Made by a program: the position numbers and the translations under genes. A DNA stretch of 64,000 nucleotides from an uncultured Candidatus Saccharibacteria bacterium (GTDB taxonomy: Bacteria; Patescibacteriota; Minisyncoccia; UBA6257; 1-14-0-10-40-38). Below the pieces are notes generated by a model. It saw only the letters and a list, made by a program, of their open reading frames with translations, was not told where the DNA came from and did no database searches. Positions 6,600 through 52,341 of this stretch are shown piece by piece. The stretch spans positions 6,652-70,651 of the forward strand of contig CAYSWC010000003.1 in assembly GCA_964434715.1 (NCBI GenBank), in the 5' to 3' direction. How positions within the stretch are numbered: position 1 is the stretch's first letter; the number at the start of each line of letters is the position of its first letter.

Positions 6600-7029
6600 A
6601 AGCCCGAGCCAAACCAAAAAATTCGCCGTCCGACTGGCAGAAAAGATAGTAAGACAAAAGCCAAGGCGCCACGCCAGGATTTTCGGTTTAGTGGGTGATT
6701 TGGGCTCCGGAAAAACCACGTTTATTCAGGGTTTTTTAAAAATGTTGGGCGTAAAACAATCGGTAATCAGCCCGACTTTTCTTATTTTTCGGCCCTATCC
6801 CCTACCCACTGACGTCAAACACTACCAGACAGCCTATCACGTAGATTTATATCGCATAAAATCAGCAAAAGAACTAGAGATTTTAAACTTTAAGGACATC
6901 ATTAAAGACCCGCGCAATATTGTCCTAATCGAATGGGCTAATAAAATAAAACGCTCTTTACCAAAAAATACTATTTGGCTACGATTTGAACACAGCAGAA
7001 AACCCACGGAAAGAATTATTACCATATGA
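6583..7029 (+). CDS. tsaE: tRNA t6A37 biosynthesis ATPase TsaE (YjeE)
   Basis: P-loop GDLGSGKTTF, SPTF, HVDLYR and a ..EW motif in the order typical of TsaE. Confidence 0.85.
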   Translation: MKRLLRSPSQTKKFAVRLAEKIVRQKPRRHARIFGLVGDLGSGKTTFIQGFLKMLGVKQSVISPTFLIFRPYPLPTDVKHYQTAYHVDLYRIKSAKELEILNFKDIIKDPRNIVLIEWANKIKRSLPKNTIWLRFEHSRKPTERIITI

Positions 7030-15230: not shown

Positions 15231-18200
15231 TTATAAACAACGGGTAAACCCGCACTGCCGGCAGGAGAGACACCCTTCGCCCATTTGAAGCGGCGCGCCG
15301 CAGTCCGGACAGCCGGGCACGAGCCCATAGTCAGCGATTTGCTTAGGAACCGGATTCATATTTTCCTCTTTATGGGCCGCAACCGGCAGTAATTCTTTTG
15401 ATCCGCCGTTCATAAGAGCGGCTTTGCTTTTAGCATGCTCTTCTAAAACCTGACCAATGGCATCAGGGAGGGAGAGCACCGTGCCCTTATCAGTTAAAAC
15501 CGGCATGGGACCGCGGATGCCTTTAAGCTGTTCAATCACTGATTCCACCTTAATGCCGGAGCGGAGCGAGAGTGAGATCATCCGGCAGATTGCCTCGCTT
15601 TGCTCCTGAAAAAAGCCGCCGCTTTTGCCAATGGTCGCAAAAATCTCAAAGGGCACGCCGCGCTCATCATCATTGATGGTGATATAAAGATTGCCGTAGC
15701 CGGTTTTAACCTTATAGGTTCTGCCGCTCATGGACTCGGGACGCACTCGCGGTTCCAGCCGGCCTTTGTCAATTTTAAGATCCAACGAAGGTTCGCCGAG
15801 TTTTTTAGTGGTTGAAATCTCGGTGGGCGCGACAAGATTTTCTCCGGTTCCCAGATTGAGAATTTGGACGGTGCGGCTGCCGTCGCGGTAAACCGTACAG
15901 CTCTTGCATTTCATTTTCCAAGCCATAATATAGCCGCGAACCACATCTTCTTCGGTTGCGCTATTGGGGAAGTTGATGGTTTTGGAAATGGAATTATCAA
16001 CATATCTCTGAAAAGCCGCTTGGGTTTTAATGTGATCATCGGCCGAAATGTCCATGGCTACAACAAAAGTCCGGCGGAGTTCTTCGGGCAAATCTTTAAG
16101 ATTCTGGATACTGCCGGTTTTAATGATGTTTTCTTTAATTTTCCGGATTTTGTCTTTGGAGAATCTGTATCTGCCCAAAACCCCTTCAAAATATTTATTA
16201 AAGTAATGGTACTGCTGGCCGTCTTTATCCTGCTTAACATAAGCCAAGGCAAAGTTGGGCTCCACGCCCGAGGAGCAGTCAAGCATCATGGAGATGGAAC
16301 CGGTGGGCGCAACCGTGGTTAGGGCGGCGTTTCTCATTTTGATTTTCTTTTTTGGGAAAACGCTTAATTTGATATTAGCAAATACTCCTTTTTCTTTAGC
16401 CAATTCCCCGGACGCCTTATGAGCGGTTTCGGTAATAGCTTTCATAACCCGCTCGGCCATTTTAATACCGGCGGGAGAATTGTAAGCAATGCCGGTTTGA
16501 TACAAGAGATCGGCAAAACCCATAATACCCAAACCAATGCGGCGGTTTTTTCTTGCCAAATCAGTGACTTTTTGAACCGGAAAATCAAAAGAATCAATGA
16601 CGTTGTCCATAAGGCGCGTCGCTGTTTTGGTTACCAAGCGGAGCCGCGCCCAGTCAACCTTGCCGTCTTTAGCAAAAGCCGCCAGGTTGATGGAGCCCAA
16701 ATTGCAGTTGTCGTAGTGATGAAGAAATTGTTCTCCGCACGGATTAGAACAGTCAATCGGGCCTAAGCCCGGCAAGGGATTAGTGCGGTTGACTTCATCA
16801 ATAAAGACGATTCCCGGCTCGCCGTTTAACCAAGCATAATGGACTAGCTCATCAAAAAGCTGTTTGACCGTAATATCCACCTCTTCCACGCTGACCACGC
16901 TTCCGTTTCTTGCCCGAATGACTTTTCGCGGCTTCATTTTTTTGCCATTCCAGTTGCAGTACCACTGCTCATTAGGGCTGGTTTCCAGTTTTTTCATAAA
17001 CTCATCGGTGACTTTGACCGAGATATTGAAATTGCGGATTTCACCCTCCACTTCTTTGGAACGGATAAAATCCAAAACATCCGGGTGATCCACCTGCATC
17101 ATGGCCATGTTGGCACCGTGCCTTGAATTTTTTGTGTAGAGACCCGCATTGATCATATGCACATCTTCCACCTCAAAGTCATAGACGGCTTTTGTGCCGG
17201 TCGGCTTGATACTTTTAACTTTTGAAGGCACAAACCCCAGCCATAAATTATTTTTCTCCAGTCGTTCAGCGGCTGCGGTATTTTTTCTTTGGAGCAGAAA
17301 AGCTGTCTGTATTTGCGAGAGAACCGAGTAACTAATGGTGGTGCGAACACCGTCGTGTTTGTTCCTGATATCTTGATATTCATATCCTAAATCACGAATC
17401 GGGTGAAAAGGGAAAATCCAGCCGAAATCTTTAGTTCCCACTTTCTTCTGAATTTTCCAGGAATAACGAGACACCTTTTCATAGAATTTTTCAGTAAATA
17501 CCTTACCGATTATTGAGAGCCGATAAACCCGGCGCCATTCTCTACGCCGTTTTTCCGAGGCAATCTTAGAACCAATGCCGTTGGCCAAAAGAAGCAGCTG
17601 GAGTTGTTTTATAAATTCTTCACTCGAAGAGGCAATGCGGTAATTTTTACCATTATCGCCATCGCCGTCAAAAAAGCCAGCCACAAAAGCCGTCTGAACG
17701 CTTGAAGGAGAAGTTAGAATTTTTTCGGGAAGAGCTATTTCCCAAGAATGCTTTTTAAGCAGACCGTTCTCGGATAAGAATTTTTTAACCCAAAGCGAAT
17801 TAATCTTTAATCGCCGGCAATTTTCACCCGCCGTCTTAGCAATGAGCGGATTGACGGCAAACAACTCGTTGACTAATTCAATCGTCTTATTTTGAACCTC
17901 AATATCGTCAGGAATTACCAAGCCAATACCTTGAGCATCATTCCAGCCATCGGCAAAATACCAGCCCAAGAAGTATCCGAGTTCCTCATTTAAAATCTCC
18001 GGCTGTCTTATTGCTTTTAATTGCAGACTTGTATATTTGCTTTTTTGATAACTTACTTTTTGTAACGGCAGCTTTCCGAAATTATTATTTTCATCACCCA
18101 ATTTGAGCAATAGCGTATCCCGCCCACCAAGTTCTTTTACCATTTTTAAAACAATTTGATCATTTTCAATCACCGCCACCTTGTGATTAGGGGTTAATTC

Positions 18201-18917
18201 AATTGAAAACCCGGAATCCAAAGTCAATTTAACTGTCTCTTGAATGCCGTTAGAAAATACTTCGGTTACCTTGTTCCAGCCTTGTTCGGTAAAAGTTTCA
18301 TCACCCGTGTGGACTTGCTCAATCGGAATCAATCCTCGCTTAGTGACAATTAAAGTCCCCTTGGCAAAACATTGTTGCTTGATCATCCCGAAGGCTTCGT
18401 TATAAACCTTTAAGAAAGATACCGGGCCCGAGGAAACGCCGCGGGATTTTTTAGTCGGGCTTAAAGCCGGACGAAGATGGGAAAAATCAAAGCCCAATCC
18501 CGAACCAGCCTGCTGTAGCATAGCCGCGTCTTTCAAAGTCTGGAAAATACTCTCCATTGAGTCTAAGACCGGGAGCACAATGCAGTTGGCAATCAGAGGC
18601 GTGCCGGTGCCGACATTGGTTAAAGTGCGGCCGGCTGGCGTATATTCCTTGCGGGACATAATTTCAAAGAAATCCCGCTCGGTTTTCTCAATAAATTTCT
18701 TGTCGGCCCCGTAATTTTTCTCCACTTGGGCTAGAGCGCGGGAAACCCGATGAAACATTTCTGTCGGCGACTCCTGTTTGCCGTCATCGTGCGTAAAGAA
18801 ATAGCGCTTGCGCATCATTTTAAGCGCGTTTTCCGAAAAAGACTCGTTAATTAAGTCGTCCGCTGATTTTTGCGGGAACTTAAGTTCCCGCCGCCGAAGC
18901 TTGGTAACCCGCCGCAT
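15231..18917 (-). CDS. nrdJ: Class II (adenosylcobalamin-dependent) ribonucleotide reductase NrdJ, interrupted by an intein
   Basis: The exteins carry NPCGEQ (active-site Cys/Glu), SGPVSFLKVYN and a C-terminal Cys4 ribbon CPDCG..CLSCRQCG. An in-frame 415-aa insert lies after ..GMIKQQ. Confidence 0.9.
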   Translation of the reverse strand: MRRVTKLRRRELKFPQKSADDLINESFSENALKMMRKRYFFTHDDGKQESPTEMFHRVSRALAQVEKNYGADKKFIEKTERDFFEIMSRKEYTPAGRTLTNVGTGTPLIANCIVLPVLDSMESIFQTLKDAAMLQQAGSGLGFDFSHLRPALSPTKKSRGVSSGPVSFLKVYNEAFGMIKQQCFAKGTLIVTKRGLIPIEQVHTGDETFTEQGWNKVTEVFSNGIQETVKLTLDSGFSIELTPNHKVAVIENDQIVLKMVKELGGRDTLLLKLGDENNNFGKLPLQKVSYQKSKYTSLQLKAIRQPEILNEELGYFLGWYFADGWNDAQGIGLVIPDDIEVQNKTIELVNELFAVNPLIAKTAGENCRRLKINSLWVKKFLSENGLLKKHSWEIALPEKILTSPSSVQTAFVAGFFDGDGDNGKNYRIASSSEEFIKQLQLLLLANGIGSKIASEKRRREWRRVYRLSIIGKVFTEKFYEKVSRYSWKIQKKVGTKDFGWIFPFHPIRDLGYEYQDIRNKHDGVRTTISYSVLSQIQTAFLLQRKNTAAAERLEKNNLWLGFVPSKVKSIKPTGTKAVYDFEVEDVHMINAGLYTKNSRHGANMAMMQVDHPDVLDFIRSKEVEGEIRNFNISVKVTDEFMKKLETSPNEQWYCNWNGKKMKPRKVIRARNGSVVSVEEVDITVKQLFDELVHYAWLNGEPGIVFIDEVNRTNPLPGLGPIDCSNPCGEQFLHHYDNCNLGSINLAAFAKDGKVDWARLRLVTKTATRLMDNVIDSFDFPVQKVTDLARKNRRIGLGIMGFADLLYQTGIAYNSPAGIKMAERVMKAITETAHKASGELAKEKGVFANIKLSVFPKKKIKMRNAALTTVAPTGSISMMLDCSSGVEPNFALAYVKQDKDGQQYHYFNKYFEGVLGRYRFSKDKIRKIKENIIKTGSIQNLKDLPEELRRTFVVAMDISADDHIKTQAAFQRYVDNSISKTINFPNSATEEDVVRGYIMAWKMKCKSCTVYRDGSRTVQILNLGTGENLVAPTEISTTKKLGEPSLDLKIDKGRLEPRVRPESMSGRTYKVKTGYGNLYITINDDERGVPFEIFATIGKSGGFFQEQSEAICRMISLSLRSGIKVESVIEQLKGIRGPMPVLTDKGTVLSLPDAIGQVLEEHAKSKAALMNGGSKELLPVAAHKEENMNPVPKQIADYGLVPGCPDCGAPLQMGEGCLSCRQCGFTRCL
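17127..18371 (-). mobile_element. Intein with LAGLIDADG homing-endonuclease domain in NrdJ (aa 183-597)
   Basis: Starts with Cys (CFAKGTLIV) and ends ..GLYTKN followed by Ser. LAGLIDADG motifs LGYFLGWYFADGW and FVAGFFDGDGD. The penultimate residue is Lys rather than the usual His. Confidence 0.85.
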
Positions 18918-19151: not shown

Positions 19152-19222
19152 GCCGGAGTAGCTTAATGGTAAAGTAGGCGCCTGAAGAGCGTCTGAAGGC
19201 AGTTCGATTCTGCCCTCCGGCA
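19152..19222 (+). tRNA. tRNA-Phe (anticodon GAA)
   Basis: Acceptor GCCGGAG/CTCCGGC, anticodon arm GGCGC-CTGAAGA-GCGTC (G37), T arm GGCAG-TTCGATT-CTGCC. Confidence 0.85.
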
Positions 19223-19342
19223 CAAAATATTCACCCCCGCGGCACCCCGAAAAATAAAAATAGACCCCAATGGTCTATTTTTATCTCGGGGTAGGCCCTT
19301 TAGCAGCTAGAAACCCCGGGTTCTCGGGGTTTTTGTCTCCCC

Positions 19343-25553: not shown

Positions 25554-25608
25554 CATAAATTTTTATTACAACTTGCCTAAACCTTTAACGAGGCATGGCA
25601 CAAAAAAT

Positions 25609-25752
25609 CCACTGCGACATAGAGACGGCCACCCGTCTCCCATCATGTCGCAGTGGTCGGTAGCCCGAAAGGGTTATCGGGCAGTTCCGAAAGGAGCTGT
25701 CGGGGGTAACGGATGGCCTTTTCTGTTACTCCAAGAAAAAACCACTGCGACA
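25609..25752 (+). promoter_or_regulatory. Highly structured leader / operator region upstream of mod
   Basis: 12-bp stem CCACTGCGACAT (25609-25620) / ATGTCGCAGTGG (25645-25656) enclosing GAGACGG-CCAC-CCGTCTC. Two GAAA-tetraloop hairpins follow. CCACTGCGACA is repeated at 25741-25751 just before the mod ATG. Confidence 0.5.
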
Positions 25753-25754
25753 AT

Positions 25755-27254
25755 ATGAGTAAAAAAATAGATTTGCAATCGGCTCTTACACCAGCCGATA
25801 TAAAATTAACGCAAAAACTTCTTAAGGAGAATGAAGCTCTTAAGAAGGAAATTAAACATCTCAAATCACGCAAAAAGTATGGTCTTGTTTGGGATAGCGA
25901 AAAAGAGCCAGAAAAAGTAGTTGAGCTGTGCAAAGACAAATTACCTGTTCTGGCCGAAGACCAAGACAGAGAGATTGAAACGGATAAAGAGAAGCCCGTG
26001 AATGTTCTCATTGAGGGTGATAATTACCATGCCCTCTCTGTCTTAAATTACACTCATAACGAAAAAATAGATTTGATTTACATAGACCCGCCCTACAACA
26101 CTGGGAGCGAGGGTTTTATGTATAACGACAAAATTGTAAATCGTGAGGACTCATACAGGCACAGCAAATGGATTAACTTTATGGATAAGAGGTTGCGGCT
26201 GGCTAAAAATCTCCTGAAAAAAGATGGGGTAATTTTAATAAATATAGACGATAACGAGATAGCTCAACTTAAATTGCTGTGCGATGAAATCCTCGGCGAG
26301 GATTACTTCAGAAACACTGTAATTTGGTCATATCGCACTGGTGGAGCACCGCATAAAAATGACGCTTTCTCCAGAAAGCACGACTATATCCTTTTATATT
26401 CTCGCTCAAAAGAATACTTTTTTAATAGATTTAAGGAGAAAATTCCCTACGAAAAAGATTTTTTCGGTGCGAAAAAAGATGAGACGGGCAAGTTTTATGC
26501 TGATGTAAATTTGCGAGATGTAATTGAGGGCGACATCATCCTTTTCAAAGACGGTAAAGAGTATAAGAAGATAAGCGTTAAACCAGTTCTCAATTTATCC
26601 AGCGAAAGAGTTGAGGATTTCCCAACCCAAAAACCTATCGGGTTAATTAAGTATTTTCTTGAGATATTAAGCAGACCCAATGCGACTATTTTGGATTTTT
26701 TTGCTGGTTCGGGTAGCACTGGACACGCTGTTTTGGATTTGAATAAAGAAAATAAAGACAAACGACAATTTATTTTATGCACAAATGACGAGAACAATAT
26801 CTGCACAAAAGTATGCTATCCGAGATTAAAAAGAAATATCGTTGGCTTCGCAAAGGACAATGGCAAAAAAGTTGCTGGTCTCGGCGGCAATCTTAAATAC
26901 TTCAAAACCGATTTTGTTGATAACGCCACAACCGATAAAAATAAGAAAAAGCTCGTTGATAAATCAACCGAAATGCTCTGCCTGAAAGAAGATTGTTTTG
27001 AAAAAGTGAAATCGGGCAAGAGCTTCAATGTTTTCAAAAACCCCAAAGAAAAATATCTCGGCATAATTTATGACGATGATGGCATTGAGGGTTTTAAGAA
27101 AGAAGCGAAAAAGCTCAACAAAAACTTCTCGGTCTATGTTTTCTCGCTTGATGATAGTGCGAGAGAGGAAGAATTTGAGGACATCAAAGATTTGGTTGAA
27201 TTAAAGCCAATTCCTGCGGTCATATTAAATGTCTATAAACGCATATTCAAATGA
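25755..27254 (+). CDS. mod: Type III restriction-modification methyltransferase (Mod)
   Basis: ATG at 25755 (MSKKIDLQ). DPPY motif in IYIDPPYNT precedes the AdoMet motif FFAGSGSTG (beta-class order). Overlaps res by 4 nt. Confidence 0.85.
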   Translation: MSKKIDLQSALTPADIKLTQKLLKENEALKKEIKHLKSRKKYGLVWDSEKEPEKVVELCKDKLPVLAEDQDREIETDKEKPVNVLIEGDNYHALSVLNYTHNEKIDLIYIDPPYNTGSEGFMYNDKIVNREDSYRHSKWINFMDKRLRLAKNLLKKDGVILINIDDNEIAQLKLLCDEILGEDYFRNTVIWSYRTGGAPHKNDAFSRKHDYILLYSRSKEYFFNRFKEKIPYEKDFFGAKKDETGKFYADVNLRDVIEGDIILFKDGKEYKKISVKPVLNLSSERVEDFPTQKPIGLIKYFLEILSRPNATILDFFAGSGSTGHAVLDLNKENKDKRQFILCTNDENNICTKVCYPRLKRNIVGFAKDNGKKVAGLGGNLKYFKTDFVDNATTDKNKKKLVDKSTEMLCLKEDCFEKVKSGKSFNVFKNPKEKYLGIIYDDDGIEGFKKEAKKLNKNFSVYVFSLDDSAREEEFEDIKDLVELKPIPAVILNVYKRIFK

Positions 27255-31544: not shown

Positions 31545-31615
31545 GCCCTCGTAACTCATCGGTAGAGTGCTGGTCTGAAAAGCCAGATAAGTTGGTTCAA
31601 CTCCAACCGAGGGCA
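31545..31615 (+). tRNA. tRNA-Phe (anticodon GAA), second copy with different sequence
   Basis: Acceptor GCCCTCG/CGAGGGC, D arm ACTC-ATCGGTA-GAGT, anticodon arm CTGGT-CTGAAAA-GCCAG (A37), T arm GTTGG-TTCAACT-CCAAC. Confidence 0.85.
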
Positions 31616-31618
31616 CAC

Positions 31619-31691
31619 GCCCTTGTAGCTCAATGGATAGAGCGAGCGTTTTCTGAACGCACGGTTGCGGGTTCAAATCCTGCCGAGGGCA
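31619..31691 (+). tRNA. tRNA, probably Arg (anticodon TCT), second copy
   Basis: Acceptor GCCCTTG/CGAGGGC, D arm GCTC-AATGGATA-GAGC, anticodon loop TTTCTGA (TCT with G37), T arm GCGGG-TTCAAAT-CCTGC. Confidence 0.7.
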
Positions 31692-31818
31692 CTATCAAAG
31701 TTTCTCAAATCGGGTATGTAGATATACTCATTTTGTCGTTGTATAATGGTTCTAACATCCTCTACGATTTGACCCCTAAAGGAAGCAGGAGGCGCGTCAC
31801 TCATGTTAAAATATAACC

Positions 31819-47379: not shown

Positions 47380-47862
47380 ATGTTCCACAGCCAACAACCG
47401 ATACAAGACAAAAAATTCCTCTCATATGAATACATCAGGGGCCTGGTAGAAGGCGAGGGATGCTTTTCATTTTCGGCTGGAAGAGAAAATAAAAATGGCA
47501 CAAAATATAAGCTTCCAGCTTTTATCATTGGTATGCATGAACGAGACAGGGAGTTATTGAAAATGGTATGCGATAGCTTGGGCTTAAAGAGCAAGATTTA
47601 CAATAGACCAGCATGGAGAGGAGATGGAGTTAATCGCGGAAGGTCGGTCATTCTCATTGTTAGAGATTTTCAACAACTAAAAGATATTATAATTCCACTT
47701 TTCTACAAAAAATTGAAAGGACATAAAGGTAAGCAATTTATAGAATGGCTGGAGAAAATAGGAAGCGATCCAGATATATCAGATAGATTCAAGTCGCTTT
47801 ATAGAATTTATAAATGGGGTATATATGATGGTCCGAAATTCCTCAATAGATTTATAGATTAA
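47380..47862 (+). CDS. Free-standing LAGLIDADG homing endonuclease (single-motif type)
   Basis: YIRGLVEGEGCFSF is a classic LAGLIDADG motif, and 160 aa is typical of homodimeric enzymes. Confidence 0.8.
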   Translation: MFHSQQPIQDKKFLSYEYIRGLVEGEGCFSFSAGRENKNGTKYKLPAFIIGMHERDRELLKMVCDSLGLKSKIYNRPAWRGDGVNRGRSVILIVRDFQQLKDIIIPLFYKKLKGHKGKQFIEWLEKIGSDPDISDRFKSLYRIYKWGIYDGPKFLNRFID

Positions 47863-48029
47863 GAACTATATAGCTCTTGTACGAAATGTTTGCCGGATTA
47901 CAAGCAAAACAGCCAAATCTGAAAAACACTTGTAAAATCTACGCTTTTCGCATCTACACAAAATTCGATGTTTCACACTTGTTTCACACTTTTGTCAATA
48001 GCAGATGTAGATAAAATAAGGGTTTTTTC

Positions 48030-48250
48030 AAGTTTTGCAGGATTTTGCAGGATTAATCCTGCAAAATCCTGCAATAATCCGGCAAAGCTAATCCTGCAAA
48101 ATTAATCCTGCAAAAATCCTGTCACCCTACGAGTGATCTCTCATGCCTACGGCAGACCTCCCGAAGGGATTGGCCGCAGGGAGACAATTATTCTGCAAAG
48201 CTAATCCTGCAATCCTGCAAAAATTTGACGAATCCTGCAAAAGATTGTCC
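48030..48250. repeat. Iteron-like array of AATCCTGCAAAA
   Basis: At least 8 direct copies (starting near 48056, 48066, 48091, 48104, 48115, 48203, 48211, 48231) and 2 inverted copies (TTTTGCAGGATT near 48035 and 48045), around a GC-rich ~60-nt core. Spacing is irregular. Confidence 0.7.
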
Positions 48251-48482
48251 AGATACCTTTGTCGCTAATAATCACTAATAAGGCGACCACTTGGTATCGG
48301 GCTTTACCAGCTCTCTAGCCGCCTCACAAATATTCGTTAATATTAGCGCTGGCTTAGAAATGTTCACTACTATGCGGAGTGGATAGATCATCATTTGACG
48401 GTTTATCGGGCTTTTGACGACAAGCGGTTCGTTGGAGCCCAAATCACCGGAATCAGCAGAATGGCGAAGAGAAAAAGGTCGA

Positions 48483-48507
48483 GTCCCGCCTAGGCGGGAC
48501 TTTTTTT
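48483..48507. terminator. Hairpin terminator
   Basis: GTCCCGCC-TA-GGCGGGAC followed by TTTTTTT. Confidence 0.7.
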
Positions 48508-48509
48508 AA

Positions 48510-48789
48510 TGGACGGTGCAGGGATTGGACCTGCGACCTCGTCGGTGTCCCGCATAAAGTGGGCGCACCAGGATTTAAACCTGGGACCTCTCCGGTGTAA
48601 ACGGAGCGCTCTAATCACTGAGCTATGCGCCCACTTTAAGCGGGATTGTCATCCCTTCGAGAGATCTGCCGAAGGCATGACGATTTTCTAAACTCGTTTC
48701 ACTCGTTAAGAAAATCGGTAATAAACTTCTCGCTCCCTGCCCCGTACCGAGCTTCGCTTTGGTGCGGGGTACCACCGAGCTAACCGTCC
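48510..48789 (-). tRNA. Interrupted (split) tRNA-like gene: 5' part 48789-48646, 3' part 48547-48510, with tRNA-Val nested between
   Basis: The 5' acceptor GGACGGT (48789-48783) is the exact complement of ACCGTCC (48517-48511). TA-GCTC D-arm start. The 3' part GGGACAC-CGACG-AGGTC-GCAGG-TCCAATC-CCTGC aligns with the inner tRNA-Val. The T loop deviates at one position. Confidence 0.35.
48560..48632 (-). tRNA. tRNA-Val (anticodon TAC)
   Basis: GGGCGCA-TA-GCTC-AGTGATTA-GAGC-G-CTCCG-TTTACAC-CGGAG-AGGTC-CCAGG-TTTAAAT-CCTGG-TGCGCCC-A. Confidence 0.9.
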
Positions 48790-48874
48790 GCGATTTGCTT
48801 AGCGGATGTTGATTATCATAATTCCAACTTGCAGAAAAGACAACTTTTGAGGTAAAAGTAATAAGGAAGACACA

Positions 48875-48946
48875 CGGCTCGTAGCTCAGTGGTAGAGCAA
48901 GGTCCTTATAAGGCCGAGGTCGCAGGTTCGATCCCTGCCGAGCCGA
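48875..48946 (+). tRNA. tRNA with anticodon TAT (Ile, AUA-reading type)
   Basis: Acceptor CGGCTCG/CGAGCCG, D arm GCTC-AGTGGTA-GAGC, anticodon loop CTTATAA, variable AGGTC, T arm GCAGG-TTCGATC-CCTGC. Confidence 0.75.
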
Positions 48947-49060
48947 GAATGATCGAACCGGGAAGGGGGTCGGGGAAACGGGAGTTTCCCCGTGTAGAAA
49001 AGAACTGAAAACCGAGAGGTTGTCAGGGAGCGAGTTGCTGTATAGCGACTCGCGACGTGA

Positions 49061-49078
49061 GATTCCCTGCCGAGCCGA
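49061..49078 (+). repeat. Duplicate of the 3' end of the tRNA at 48875-48946
   Basis: GATTCCCTGCCGAGCCGA versus tRNA 48930-48946 GATCCCTGCCGAGCCGA (one extra T). The two copies are 114 nt apart. Confidence 0.7.
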
Positions 49079-49133
49079 TAGGAAATTAATCAAACCCGCT
49101 CCGACCGAAATCAGGGAGGCTTTTGCTATTTGT

Positions 49134-49400: not shown

Positions 49401-51236
49401 TTAGTTTATCGCAATCGGTTTTAAATCAAAAGGTTTTAAGAGAGCGTTGAATGCTTCCTGCTCCAAAGTCTCTTTTTTAATTAAAGTTTCGGCAATGGCC
49501 TCAAGAACTTTTCTTCGGGCGGCGATGATTTTTTGAGCGGTTTCGTGAGCCAGTTTTATAAACTTCTGAACCTCTTTATCAATTTTAGCGGCCACGGCTT
49601 CGGAATAATCTTTCTCCACCGCGATCTCACGGCCCAAGAAGATAAGCTCCTCGCTCTTGCCAAAAGTCATAGGGCCCAAATCGCTCATGCCGAATTTAGT
49701 AACTAAAGCGCGCGCCAAGTGAGAGGCCTCTTTTAGGTCGTTCGAAGCACCGGTTGAGATATCGCCCAAAACCGCTTGCTCGGCCGCATACCCGCCCATC
49801 ATAATAGCCAAATCAGTTAAAAATTGGGTTTTAGTGCGAAGCCGGACTTCTTCAATGGGGAGTTTGAGCGTATAGCCGCCAACCCGTCCGCGAGATACAA
49901 TTGATATTTTCTGGACCGGATCAGCACCTTTGAGGCTGGCCGCGGCTAAAGCATGACCAGCTTCGTGATAAGCGGTGATTTTCTTTTCGCGTTCGGAAAT
50001 TACCCGGCTTCTCCTTTCCGGCCCCAAAAGAACTTTTTCAATTGAATCATAAAGATCTGATTGAACAATAATTTTTCGGTTAAGGCGGGCGGCTAAAATT
50101 GCCGCTTCATTGATTAAATTAGCTAAATCAGCGCCCGTGAAGCCCGGCGTCCGAATCCCTACCTTATTTAAATCAACGCTTTTATCCAGCGGCTTGCCCT
50201 TAGCGTGGATTTCTAGAATTTCTTCTCGGTCCTTGATGTCCGGCAAATCTAGTACCACGCGGCGGTCAAACCGGCCGGGACGAAGCAGAGCCGGATCCAA
50301 AGTATCAGGCCTATTGGTAGCGGCCATAATGATAACTCGGGAATCTCTTTCAAAACCGTCCATCTCCACCAGAATCTGGTTTAAGGTTTGTTCCCGCTCA
50401 TCATGTCCGCCGCCCAAACCCGCGCCCCGCTCTCGGCCAACGGCGTCAATTTCATCAATAAAAAGAATTGAGGGCGCGGCTTTTTTGGCAGTTGCAAAAC
50501 TGTCCCTGACGCGACTAGCTCCAACTCCTACGAACATTTCCACAAACTCCGATGCCGAGATATGGAAGAAGGGAACATTGCTCTCGCCCGCCGTGGCGCG
50601 CGCCAAGAGCGTTTTTCCTGTGCCGGGCAGGCCCATTAAAAGCACTCCCCGCGGAATCTTAGCCCCTAATTCAAAAAATTTCTTCGGGTTTTTAAGGAAA
50701 TCAACTACTTCTTCAAGTTCCTGCTTGGCCTCTTTAAGACCCGCCACATCTTTAAAAGTTATCCGGTCTTTATGGGGTGATGAGAGCCGGATATTGGAAC
50801 GGCCAAAACTGAAAACTTGGGAAGCGCCGGTTCGGGCCTGCCGGAAAATAAACCAGAAAATAGCGAGGATTACGATGAGCGGCAAAAGAGTCGGTAAAAG
50901 TACGCCCAGCCAAAACTGCAAGCCGGTTTCATTTTTAATTTCAATCGCGACCCGCCGCAATGCCGCCTGATCAACACCGAGGTTGCTTAAAGTTTCCGTC
51001 AGAGCTGATTCGGTTTCTTTCTGAACCACCGCGTCTTTGCCGTCTTTAAATTCCACTGTCAGTTCATTGCCGCGGGCGATAATTCTTGATATTTCGCCCT
51101 GATTAATCTTTTCAGCCAACTGGTTAAGGCTTAAAGTTTCTTTGGATTTTTGGCCGCCCAAAAGCACAGAAAAAACCAGCGAGACAATAATCAGAGTCAC
51201 GATTGCCCAGAAGATGTTTTTGTAGAGTAATTTCAT
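49401..51236 (-). CDS. ftsH: ATP-dependent zinc metalloprotease FtsH
   Basis: 611 aa. Two N-terminal TM helices, AAA+ GLPGTGKT and DEIDA, and zinc motif HEAGH. Confidence 0.95.
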
Positions 51237-51313
51237 GTCATCAATAACATTACATTATAAATATCTTAATCAAGATTTCATGATTCGTCAATGCTTAAAC
51301 GCGGAAAGACGCG

Positions 51314-51370
51314 CCTGCCTGCCGGCAGGCAGGGATACCAAGCGGAAGGCCGCGGAAAATTTTTCCGCGG
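51314..51370. promoter_or_regulatory. Two perfect GC palindromes in the ftsH / xer divergent intergenic region
   Basis: CCTGCCTGCCGGCAGGCAGG (51314-51333) and CCGCGGAAAATTTTTCCGCGG (51350-51370). Confidence 0.4.
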
Positions 51371-51438
51371 AAATCGGCTTGTCGTCTACGGCAGCCAACC
51401 TCTACAATTGTGTCGCAAAATATTATATGATTAAGGCA

Positions 51439-52341
51439 ATGACTTCAGCCGAAAAATTGCTTAGAGAATATTTAGATTATTTGGAAATCGAGAAAAACCG
51501 TTCCATTAAGACCCGCGGTAATTACGAACGTTACTTGCGGACTTTTTTTAAGCAGGCCGGCATCAAAGACCTAAACCATATTACCGCCGATTCGGTAAGA
51601 AATTTCCGCTTGAAACTGGCGCGGCTTAAAGGGGGAGACGGCGAATTCTTAAAGAAAAACACTCAAAGTTATTATGCCATTGCCATTCGGAATTTCTTAA
51701 AATACTTAATAAAAAAAGATTATCAAGTCCTCTCGCCGGACAAAATTGAACTGCCGAAACTCCCTGAACGCCAGATTGAAATTATTGATTATGCTGATTT
51801 AGAAAGGTTGCTCCAAGCGCCCAAAGGCAGTAATTTAAGGAACTTACGCGACCAAGCTATTTTAGAGACGCTTTTTTCTACCGGCCTCCGGCTCTCTGAA
51901 CTCTGCGGGCTTAGCCGCTATCTGGATTTTGGGCGCGGTGAAATCACCGTGCGCGGCAAAGGAGAAAAACTGCGGCTGGTTTTTATCTCGGCTAGAGCCA
52001 AAAAATCTTTGAAAAATTATTTGGAAAAGCGCGGCGATGCTGACGAAGCTTTGTTTATAAGCTTAACTAAAAAAGGACAGGCGATTGGCAGGATTACGCC
52101 GCGGGCAGTGCAGAGATTAATAGATCGCTATGCCAGGCAAGCGGGCATTGGCAAACGGGTTACGCCCCATAGCTTCCGGCATGCTTTTGCAACTGATTTG
52201 TTAATTAACGGCGCTGATCTTCGTTCGGTTCAGGAACTCTTGGGCCACAGCCATATCTCGACCACCCAAGTTTATACCCATCTAACCAATAAAGAACTCC
52301 GGGAAGTTCACCGCGCTTTTCACGCCCGCCGAAGAAGATAG
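51439..52341 (+). CDS. Tyrosine recombinase, XerC/XerD-like
   Basis: SAM-like N-domain (YLDYLEIEKNRS..T..Y). Catalytic R (TGLRLSE), HSFRHAFAT and GHSHISTTQVYTH. Start is at 51439 or 51427; the ORF-track start at 51235 is unsupported. Confidence 0.85.
   Translation: MTSAEKLLREYLDYLEIEKNRSIKTRGNYERYLRTFFKQAGIKDLNHITADSVRNFRLKLARLKGGDGEFLKKNTQSYYAIAIRNFLKYLIKKDYQVLSPDKIELPKLPERQIEIIDYADLERLLQAPKGSNLRNLRDQAILETLFSTGLRLSELCGLSRYLDFGRGEITVRGKGEKLRLVFISARAKKSLKNYLEKRGDADEALFISLTKKGQAIGRITPRAVQRLIDRYARQAGIGKRVTPHSFRHAFATDLLINGADLRSVQELLGHSHISTTQVYTHLTNKELREVHRAFHARRRR

Follow-up and report, generated by a model that had tools for sequence, protein, structure and literature searches.

In positions 6,652 to 70,651 of contig CAYSWC010000003.1 (64,000 nt; hereafter the window) we examined a tRNA-Val gene on the minus strand (48789-48510) whose two halves are separated by a 174-nt insert (48721-48548) carrying a second, complete tRNA-Val. 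Our preferred reading, to which we assign a probability of roughly 0.65, is that the locus holds a mobile cassette with no ribozyme, in a copy that also lacks the nuclease; the cassette would disrupt a tRNA gene and supply a replacement for it, the outer halves being relics. The Patescibacteria element family that we propose would be recognized by its ends (TCC-CGAT...ATCG-GGA) and by one or two stem modules: a hairpin, P_b, that loops out an open reading frame (ORF) for a GIY-YIG nuclease in full-length members, and a pair of arms that clamps a cognate tRNA. In the window, such a compact, hairpin-bounded element carrying a complete tRNA-Val(UAC) would have split a resident tRNA-Val(UAC) between positions 35 and 36, in a copy that lost, or never had, the nuclease ORF. 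We refer to this locus as locus 2 and to a second nested locus on the same strand (tRNA-Pro, 15054-14844) as locus 1. Loci of relatives carry L-numbers, of which L001-L080 are GTDB species gathered by FtsH and others, such as L171-L194, are from metagenomes.

The nested layout had been predicted at both loci from the letters of the window, and every part of locus 2 was recovered on the minus strand where it was expected (Table 1). The inner tRNA-Val(UAC) scored 70.2 bits against Rfam RF00005 (gathering threshold 29), was called Val(tac) by ARAGORN and is intact, presumably the working gene. The minimum free energy (MFE) fold of the 291-nt stretch reached -128.8 kcal/mol (z = -7.4, with 0 of 200 shuffles as good) and formed, besides three hairpins, the acceptor stem and T arm of the outer gene and the inner cloverleaf with its clamp, whilst locus 1 folded into the same layout (z = -7.2). 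The clamp of locus 2 is a 13-bp leader/trailer helix with 12 of 13 positions paired and one T.T mismatch. Its predicted coaxial stacking on the inner acceptor stem applies at locus 2 but not at locus 1, where 7 nt lie between the 5' arm and the inner tRNA. A single promoter and terminator bracket the whole nested unit, and the promoter is probably that of the outer, resident gene and drives the entire unit. Another sigma-70-like promoter, inside the insert (TTGTCT-N17-TAGAAT/TATAAT; L171, L172, L179 and L180), was rejected as a general feature, as it is not conserved in the window, L174 or L188. ARAGORN in intron mode misses locus 2 because of the D-loop hairpin and broken anticodon stem of the outer gene; with its -io option it called locus 1 an intron-containing tRNA only when overlap was allowed, assigning a doubtful Gly(ccc).

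The analysis did not support the first proposal for the outer gene, a functional Val-like split gene. It had been given a GAC anticodon, but the GGGA of 'GGGACAC' belongs to the clamp 3' arm. Since the 5' exon ends AGAAG-TTTA (48730-48722) and the 3' exon starts CAC (48547), the outer anticodon is UAC, the same as that of the inner tRNA, and the gene reads as a former tRNA-Val(UAC) split at 35/36 inside the anticodon (TTTA^insert^CAC; carets mark junctions throughout). The CGTCA once taken as its 5' anticodon-stem partner lies at the junction of two insert hairpins, and the stem proper, AGAAG/CGACG, forms two of five pairs. After removal of the insert in silico, ARAGORN called no tRNA from the outer genes of the window, L171 or L180, and called tRNAs with the inner gene's anticodon from those of L188, L174/L175, L202, L044, L023 and L071. 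The T loop TCCAATC, flagged earlier as unusual, occurs also in the canonically folded inner tRNA-Val of L044, and TCC-type T loops (TCCGAGT and TCCGATT) are found in tRNA-Val genes of L054 and L032.

Outer genes of the relatives show several signs of decay. Across 16 of them, 107 of 112 acceptor, 59 of 64 D-stem and 73 of 80 T-stem pairs were intact, compared with 58 of 80 in the anticodon stem. Anticodon stems are destroyed in about half of the genes holding the window's type of insert (type A, below), the window among them, and intact outers were seen in L202, L044 and L071. Two outers are chimeric, with 5' and 3' halves that do not match (L189 and L073), and five are without one half (L036, L046, L020, L178 and L185). 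At strain level, L192 has lost 18 nt of the outer 5' strand kept in its sister strains (L174 and others), and three changes in the outer stem strand separate L175 from L174. Hairpin insertions occur in the D, T and V loops of outer genes; that in the window's D loop shares its site and ends with L179, L180, L185 and L189, with compensated changes in the stems. Within the group having the window's inner-tRNA type, identity is 90-97 % in the inner tRNA and 87-93 % at the 3' junction, but 56-74 % in the 5' part of the insert and 24-78 % in the outer 5' part, the gradient that sequence comparison would be expected to yield for a working inner gene between relic outer halves. A supposedly higher conservation of E5/E3 than of the inner tRNA was dropped after like-with-like comparison, and a K-turn built from the purine-purine mismatches of the outer anticodon stem had no support beyond the mismatches themselves.

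These pairing levels (91-96 % in acceptor, D and T stems versus 72 % in the anticodon stem) also bear on a different explanation, in which the composite RNA is functional and the outer 'top half' and junction helices are selected, either as a scaffold for stability or processing (that is, as entry sites for RNase P, Z or III) or as a tRNA-like regulatory RNA. Outer acceptor stems that differ between loci by compensated changes would suit such a function, as would the conserved junctions (GTTTAT, CAA, CACCGAG), both helices, and the one promoter and one terminator around the unit. However, the compensated differences would arise equally from insertion into different resident alleles, which relatives also have as normal genes, and the outer acceptor strands of L189 and L073 are non-complementary. 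The inner tRNA is kept in all five loci without one outer half and in L192 without the 5' strand, and the outer parts are far less conserved than the inner gene. We therefore consider selection on the composite RNA unlikely.

Nesting was found repeatedly in relatives, in agreement with the original prediction. For each of 240 tRNAs in related loci we asked whether a 7-mer on its upstream side would pair with a T arm plus acceptor strand on its downstream side, the T loop being canonical; only nested loci had such a match, and the leader/trailer helices of nested genes were the top outliers among 213 distinct tRNAs. The GTDB loci contained Pro(CGG) in Pro(CGG) and Ala(CGC) in Ala(CGC) (both L023), Val in the D loop of Val (L044) and Ile(UAU) in Ile(UAU) (L071 and L075), as well as decayed versions (L020, L036, L046, L067, L073 and L077). 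A metagenome scan with the clamp 5' arm and the start of the inner tRNA as the pattern yielded 24 loci, about 12 of them distinct, all with one insert, designated type A. Its left side reads outer ...G-TTTA^T(T/C)CC-CGATTTGT-(variable tip)-ACAAATCG-CAA-TCCCGCTTAAAGT-tRNA-Val(UAC) and its right side tRNA-Val(UAC)-ACTTTGTGCGGGA^CAC-CGAGx-AGGTC-T arm-acceptor, with conserved junctions GTTTA^T(T/C)CCCGATTTGT... (5') and ...GTGCGGGA^CACCGAG (3'). Hairpin P_b of the window (CGATTTTCT/AGAAAATCG) is a compensated variant of the first hairpin of type A. The additional hairpin module of the window is also present in L172, L178 and L185, and its second copy (48141-48170) marks it as a dispersed small palindrome.

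The distinct type-A copies occupy at least five different outer tRNA-Val alleles, and insertion is at 35/36 in all of them, as it is in all tRNA-Ala elements (below). The window-type inner tRNA (GGGCGCA/TTTAAAT) occurs with the same flanks in three outer alleles, GGACGGT (window), GCGCGCT (L172 and L180) and GGGCGTT (L188), which are found uninterrupted in L027, in many loci and in L003/L037, respectively. Occupancy is patchy among close relatives: L172 (FtsH 80 %) is nested, L001 and L002 (75 % and 72 %) are not. Three or more layers were observed in L185, L180, L172 and L186, with the outermost layer the most decayed in L185 and L172. The three- to four-layer tRNA-Val nests combine type A with a shorter type B (arms CCCCGTTAGATTT/AAATCTAACGGGG), which is also found in D loops (L044 and L180) with the compensated arm variants CCCCGTTAGAAGT/ACTTCTAACGGGG. 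The block from the outer D-loop hairpin to CACCGAG is common to loci with differing acceptor stems, which suggests that it was transferred by recombination, the crossovers falling within conserved tRNA segments. Such crossovers would explain why acceptor stems stay complementary and the anticodon stem does not.

This distribution bears on two further explanations. The architecture could be an assembly artefact or a chance resemblance, given that the data are metagenome-assembled and tRNA alleles of co-assembled strains could be chimerized; its recurrence in independent assemblies (JGI, ENA and NCBI metagenome-assembled genomes, MAGs), with identical copies in up to five metagenomes, together with the fold z-score and the covariation controls below, makes this barely credible. 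Alternatively, locus 2 could be the remnant of a tyrosine- or serine-integrase element in a tRNA gene, or the product of local tandem duplication and rearrangement of tRNA-Val, with no dedicated cassette. Anticodon loops of tRNAs often serve as att sites, there is an XerC-like gene of the phage-integrase family at a distance of 2.5 kb (51235-52341), and tandem tRNA genes are common in relatives. Yet an integrase element predicts direct repeats of a tRNA segment at the ends of a large element, whereas here a complete gene lies between two halves without overlap at the junctions (TTTA^TTAC... versus ...GGGA^CAC), in an insert of 174 nt with no integrase; a search for an integrase or att core found neither, the junctions TTTA^TTACCG and GCGGGA^CAC sharing no core. 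The tandem version would need three tandem copies and two matching deletions, repeatedly, which is unparsimonious, and these junctions are shared by many genomes and by Ala genes. Intermediate forms, of the kind the original prediction had linked to leftovers of a rearranged tandem array, do occur in relatives, but the leftovers are those of an insertionally disrupted gene. An origin by integrase or tandem rearrangement is accordingly very improbable.

The connection to a nuclease is provided by tRNA-Ala elements. In L023, a tRNA-Ala(CGC) gene is split at 35/36 (TTCG^...^CAT) by an insert that starts TCC-CGAT and ends ATCG-GGA, as type A does, with a perfect 13-bp clamp around the inner tRNA-Ala and a 90-aa GIY-YIG ORF (PF01541, E = 1e-13) at the position of the type-A hairpin. 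The same architecture was present at tRNA-Ala(UGC/CGC) in L199 (a Wildermuthbacteria MAG), L200, L202 and L195, the five elements having the junctions TTCG^...^CAT and TTTG^...^CAA. A helix of 15-23 bp loops out their ORF. In four of the five elements it takes in the ATG; in L195, where it has 16 bp, it stops just before that codon. This helix is the one formed by P_b, which is empty in the window. Other Val, Leu and Gly loci also carry GIY-YIG ORFs, arranged as outer 5' part, ORF and complete tRNA (L070, L074 and L201), as tRNA-Leu, ORF and duplicated 3' fragment (L055, L204 and L211, Sphingobacteriales), or as tRNA-Gly directly followed by the ORF (L210, Levybacteria genome), whereas the window element and the type-A Val copies have none. 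A profile search of the L023 protein family returned 3,191 proteins at E <= 1e-8, and every GIY-YIG context read in this clade abuts or interrupts a tRNA gene, most with duplicated tRNA parts. Empty one- or two-hairpin versions with TCC...GGA feet were located in D loops (L195, L201 and L067), an anticodon stem (L200), a T loop (L023) and the variable loop of the window's Pro locus (14901-14872), where the 'long variable arm' of the outer gene is in fact two empty hairpins, TCCGCC-AGA-GGCGGA and TCCGCC-TTC-GGCGGA.

In L211 (864-1570; GCA_014763615.1), which is outside the Patescibacteria, tRNA-Leu(UAA) is followed by the GIY-YIG ORF and a duplicated tRNA 3' fragment with the hairpin CCCGATTTTCAATCGGGG in place of the T arm; the terminator that follows the fragment is duplicated, and the second GIY-YIG copy found there is degenerate. 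Across phyla, this nuclease family seems to be accompanied by the CCCGAT/ATCGGG hairpin foot. The window itself has a GIY-YIG ORF at 10267-10527 (minus strand), 42 % identical to the L023 element protein. A 17-bp helix (ACTCCCCCACCAACTATG/CATAGTTGGTGGGGGAG) encloses it, start and stop codons included, in the looped-out design of the tRNA-Ala elements but outside any recognizable tRNA or Rfam family. A 45-nt perfect palindrome, GGGCGGCGCGGAA-GGGGGGTTCAAGGGGGG-AATTCCGCGCCGCCC, is present in two copies of opposite orientation, at 10625-10669 and 12909-12953, one near this GIY-YIG ORF and the other near tRNA-Gly(UCC). A free-standing single-motif LAGLIDADG ORF (47380-47862, plus strand; PF00961, E = 3e-12) lies 650 nt from locus 2; it was rejected as the engine of the insertions, its homologues being found about 2 kb from both nested (L186/L190/L194) and non-nested tRNA-Val (L026/L034).

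Covariation had been suggested for the bracketing helix from a comparison of the two loci, and the helix is genuine, covarying across the family with G.U pairs on the tRNA-sense strand. Trimmed constructs, in which AAAA stood for the loops, were built for 12 distinct elements, one of them empty and the others Val type A or Ala; each comprised the 13-bp clamp and, of the helix that holds the ORF, the first 8 bp. Over both helices 97.2 % of cells were paired, and 17 of 21 pairs displayed changes on both sides. None of 500 shuffles reached the observed values, and sliding the partner by 1-3 columns left 35-50 % paired. The T.T mismatch of the clamp is conserved in type A. The type-A 5' arm was part of the search pattern, so covariation of the arms comes mainly from between-family comparisons. 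The G.U pairs on the tRNA-sense strand point to pairing at the RNA level.

A conserved RNA fold from which an ORF is looped out is also a property of introns, and the insert might be a true tRNA intron or the outer gene a split tRNA, the insert being removed, or the inner tRNA cut out and the halves kept annealed through the arms and acceptor stem, so that a bacterial protein-dependent splicing pathway would yield two functional tRNAs from one transcript. Insertion is precise, and the exons rebuild a perfect anticodon loop (TTTA^CAC, TTCG^CAT, TTTG^CAA) and, in L202, L044, L023 and L071, a perfect tRNA after in silico removal; the hairpin inserts in D, T and V loops recall multi-intron archaeal tRNAs. 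Against this, anticodon stems are destroyed in the window outer and in half of the type-A outers, outers are chimeric or half-missing and suffer strain-level deletion, and the hairpin inserts occur in outer genes only, never in the innermost. The inner anticodon is always that of the outer, which would be pointless were the outer restored. In 95 complete Patescibacteria genomes the missing tRNAs are mainly Asn and Asp and have been attributed to group I introns (PMC13011429). Group I introns (RF00028) and other ribozymes gave no hit at the gathering threshold, and none at E <= 10 in the window locus or the L023 element. The Ala boundaries are unambiguous, with the exon ending G35 and the insert ending A rather than the U and G of the U(-1)/omega-G rule; the Val boundary is ambiguous by one nucleotide, TTT^A...G^ACAC being possible. 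The folds of nine nested loci contained no bulge-helix-bulge (BHB) motif, with a multi-branch junction and TTTAT, CAA and CAC linkers in its place. A true intron or split tRNA is thus improbable. We regard as equally improbable the broader form of this idea, in which the inserts are a new class of bacterial tRNA intron with a tRNA as structural core, so that one transcript yields two tRNAs or a non-covalent split outer tRNA. RNase P and Z would act on the inner tRNA and a further endonuclease and ligase on the TCC...GGA-closed helices, whilst the D-, T- and V-loop hairpins would be mini-introns removed by splicing, the whole being a bacterial equivalent of the split and multi-intron tRNAs of archaea. 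Comparison with IS200/IS605 (PATE) elements showed agreement in the hairpin modules and the lack of target duplication, but no TnpA or TnpB was seen in any locus inspected, and the right hairpin reaches the element end, unlike in IS608.

Under the cassette model, the embedded tRNA would be the compensation that makes insertion tolerable, as the element lacks a ribozyme and splicing does not restore the host gene. The inner tRNA would become both the working gene and a new target, from which the nests of three to four layers would follow, whilst the outer halves decay. The whole unit would be transcribed from the promoter at 48843-48815 to the terminator at 48501-48482, the inner tRNA would be released by RNase P and RNase Z, and the arms and P_b would act on the transcript. 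They may prevent the outer halves, which are nearly identical in sequence, from mispairing with the inner cloverleaf; they may also offer double-stranded sites for processing or, where the copy is full-length, sequester the start codon of the ORF. Spread would be driven by the GIY-YIG nuclease, which could operate by homing with crossovers in conserved tRNA segments or by hairpin-directed insertion into tRNA-gene DNA loops.

Several points weigh against the cassette model. The inner tRNA has the anticodon loop of the target (in L199 the stem too), and the model leaves self-targeting unexplained and gives no origin for the cognate tRNA of the first cassette. Outer acceptor, D and T stems are strikingly intact, as they would be soon after insertion, though selection on the outer 'top half' could also be the reason; this preservation gives some room to a scaffold function or even to real splicing. 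Covariation of a strongly RNA type is not required by a purely DNA-level parasite. The GIY-YIG proteins, of 80-100 aa, have no evident DNA-binding domain and are putative nucleases by sequence. Among type-A loci no Val copy has an ORF still inside P_b, so the Val copies are linked to a nuclease through their homology with the tRNA-Ala elements in ends, position and module layout.

Table 1. Features of the nested tRNA-Val locus (locus 2) and its sister locus in the window
Feature	Position	Strand	Remarks
Promoter, sigma-70-like, TTGTCT-N17-TATGAT	48815-48843	-	Only promoter-like site in 48300-49100
Outer tRNA-Val, 5' part	48722-48789	-	Aligned with 11 relatives
Outer 5' acceptor strand GGACGGT	48789-48783	-	
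Outer D arm GCTC...GAGC	48780-48732	-	Followed by G
Hairpin insertion in outer D loop, CCCCG...CGGGG	48740-48769	-	30 nt; fold and relatives
Outer anticodon-stem strand AGAAG	48730-48726	-	Degenerate
Outer anticodon-loop nt 32-35, TTTA	48725-48722	-	
Insert left end (TTAC-CGAT...) and hairpin P_b (CGATTTTCT / AGAAAATCG)	48681-48721	-	
Extra palindromic hairpin TCATGCC...GGATGA	48649-48680	-	Optional module
Extra hairpin module, second copy	48141-48170	+	90 %, inverted
Linker CAA and clamp 5' arm TCCCGCTTAAAGT	48633-48648	-	Arm, 48645-48633
Inner tRNA-Val(UAC)	48560-48632	-	Canonical cloverleaf, no encoded CCA; ARAGORN, Rfam
Clamp 3' arm ACTTTATGCGGGA	48548-48560	-	Inner discriminator A to insert right end (...CGGGA)
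Outer tRNA-Val, 3' part	48510-48547	-	Order: loop nt 36-38 CAC, CGACG, variable loop AGGTC, T arm, acceptor strand, discriminator
Outer T arm GCAGG-TCCAATC-CCTGC	48534-48518	-	
Outer 3' acceptor strand ACCGTCC	48517-48511	-	Followed by discriminator A, 48510
Intrinsic terminator, hairpin and T run	48482-48501	-	Directly after outer 3' end
Sister locus, tRNA-Pro(UGG) inside Pro-like outer gene	14844-15054	-	Inner tRNA, 14928-14998
Sister-locus clamp arms TCCGCCAAAATTT / AAATTTAGGCGGA		-	Flank tRNA-Pro(UGG)

The window encodes FtsH, RecG, GyrA (with intein), ribonucleotide reductase (with intein), a type II secretion system (T2SS) ATPase and a XerC-like recombinase, as a bacterial chromosome fragment would. 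An exact look-up of its FtsH gave no record. The protein shares 61-76 % identity with the FtsH of 80 GTDB species, every one of them in Patescibacteria, including Harrisonbacteria, Wolfebacteria, Colwellbacteria and 'Paceibacterota' MAGs, and we read the window from these matches as part of a Patescibacteria (Paceibacteria-like) genome. A phage origin was rejected: megablast of 40-60 kb against phages gave no match, and scans of viral contigs for the arm pattern gave chance matches only. The order FtsH, tRNA-Ile(UAU), tRNA-Val(UAC) is kept in most of the 80 GTDB loci. In the window tRNA-Ile(UAU) adjoins ftsH at 48875-48946 (plus strand), and its conservation there suggests that AUA is read by a UAU-anticodon tRNA in this group of Patescibacteria.

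Further features of the window are recorded for completeness. A dense iteron array (AATCCTGCAAAA) at 48019-48250 consists of at least six direct copies plus inverted copies and includes a perfect 20+20 palindrome (48035-48074); L172, the closest relative, has an array of the same motif downstream of its nested tRNA-Val. The cluster may resemble a replication origin or be a binding site for a regulator. The inteins of ribonucleotide reductase (15231-18917) and GyrA (59523-63563), both on the minus strand, have a LAGLIDADG domain. A LOOT RNA (RF03000; 65.7 bits, gathering threshold 46.4) at 25574-25701 (plus strand) stands directly upstream of an ORF (25713-27254) and a ResIII/DEAD helicase ORF, within a lower-GC stretch (about 20-32 kb, GC 0.39-0.40). 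LOOT had not been known from outside unclassified metagenome sequence; here it is in a Patescibacteria genome. A second tRNA-Phe(GAA) and tRNA-Arg(UCU) pair (31545-31692, plus strand), divergent and situated at the edge of this stretch, with counterparts at 19152-19223 (plus) and 14769-14842 (minus), may be island or prophage cargo.

Selfish insertions in essential genes normally persist by splicing out, as introns of groups I and II, and also inteins, do. We rate the present family as a selfish insertion of the homing type that makes up for its own damage in a new way; if so, an element that carries a spare copy of the gene it destroys would represent a third strategy for homing-type elements. 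The cassette model would account for layered (matryoshka) tRNA genes and orphan tRNA halves in Patescibacteria and provide a living bacterial model of tRNA-gene disruption, splitting and replacement, a question so far argued mostly from archaeal genomes. It also flags tRNA pseudo-halves and mis-called 'intron' tRNAs in annotations of the candidate phyla radiation (CPR), and ties a very large family of small uncharacterized GIY-YIG proteins to tRNA genes, making their function testable. The searchable literature yielded no account of nested tRNA genes in bacteria, nor of insertions into bacterial tRNA genes that carry a tRNA, and a mobile family of tRNA-replacing insertions is apparently undescribed.

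The nearest known systems each share part of this arrangement. Group I introns at tRNA position 35/36 in Patescibacteria, some with homing-endonuclease ORFs (Nakagawa et al., mSystems 2026, PMC13011429), have in common with the cassette the phylum, the site inside the anticodon and their omission by standard tRNA annotation. They self-splice in vitro and restore the host tRNA, whereas the window insert has no group I signal and carries a complete cognate tRNA, and the Ala members break the U(-1)/omega-G rule. The non-intron GIY-YIG insertions in CPR rRNA genes (Tsurumaki et al. 2024, PMC11270868, where tRNA genes are not mentioned) are likewise of the same phylum, with GIY-YIG ORFs in structural RNA genes and neither group I nor group II affiliation, but they have rRNA hosts and no embedded replacement copy. 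Phage T4 SegB, a free-standing GIY-YIG endonuclease in a tRNA gene cluster that performs intronless homing (PMC2330249), also combines a GIY-YIG gene with tRNA genes and non-reciprocal transfer together with flanks, without an intron or intein. SegB lies between genes, whereas the cassette lies inside a tRNA gene, with conserved hairpin feet and a full replacement tRNA that leads to nesting. Archaeal split, multi-intron and permuted tRNA genes are similar in having canonical and non-canonical sites (D, anticodon and T loops) and helices that join the halves; the present loci differ in their bacterial host, the lack of a BHB motif, outer exons that are often non-functional and an intervening tRNA of the same anticodon. 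The mobile-element model for the disruption of Caldiarchaeum tRNA-Thr (Sugahara et al. 2012, PMC3293823) invokes, as ours does, an element that disrupts a tRNA gene, supplies a substitute and leaves fragments. That element and other mobile elements that enter tRNA genes with a segment of tRNA are kilobase-scale, recombinase-encoding and archaeal or phage-like, and leave direct-repeat fragments; the inserts described here are bacterial, 100-600 nt long (the window's, with no ORF, is about 100 nt without its tRNA) and hairpin-bounded, with a complete tRNA between the two halves.

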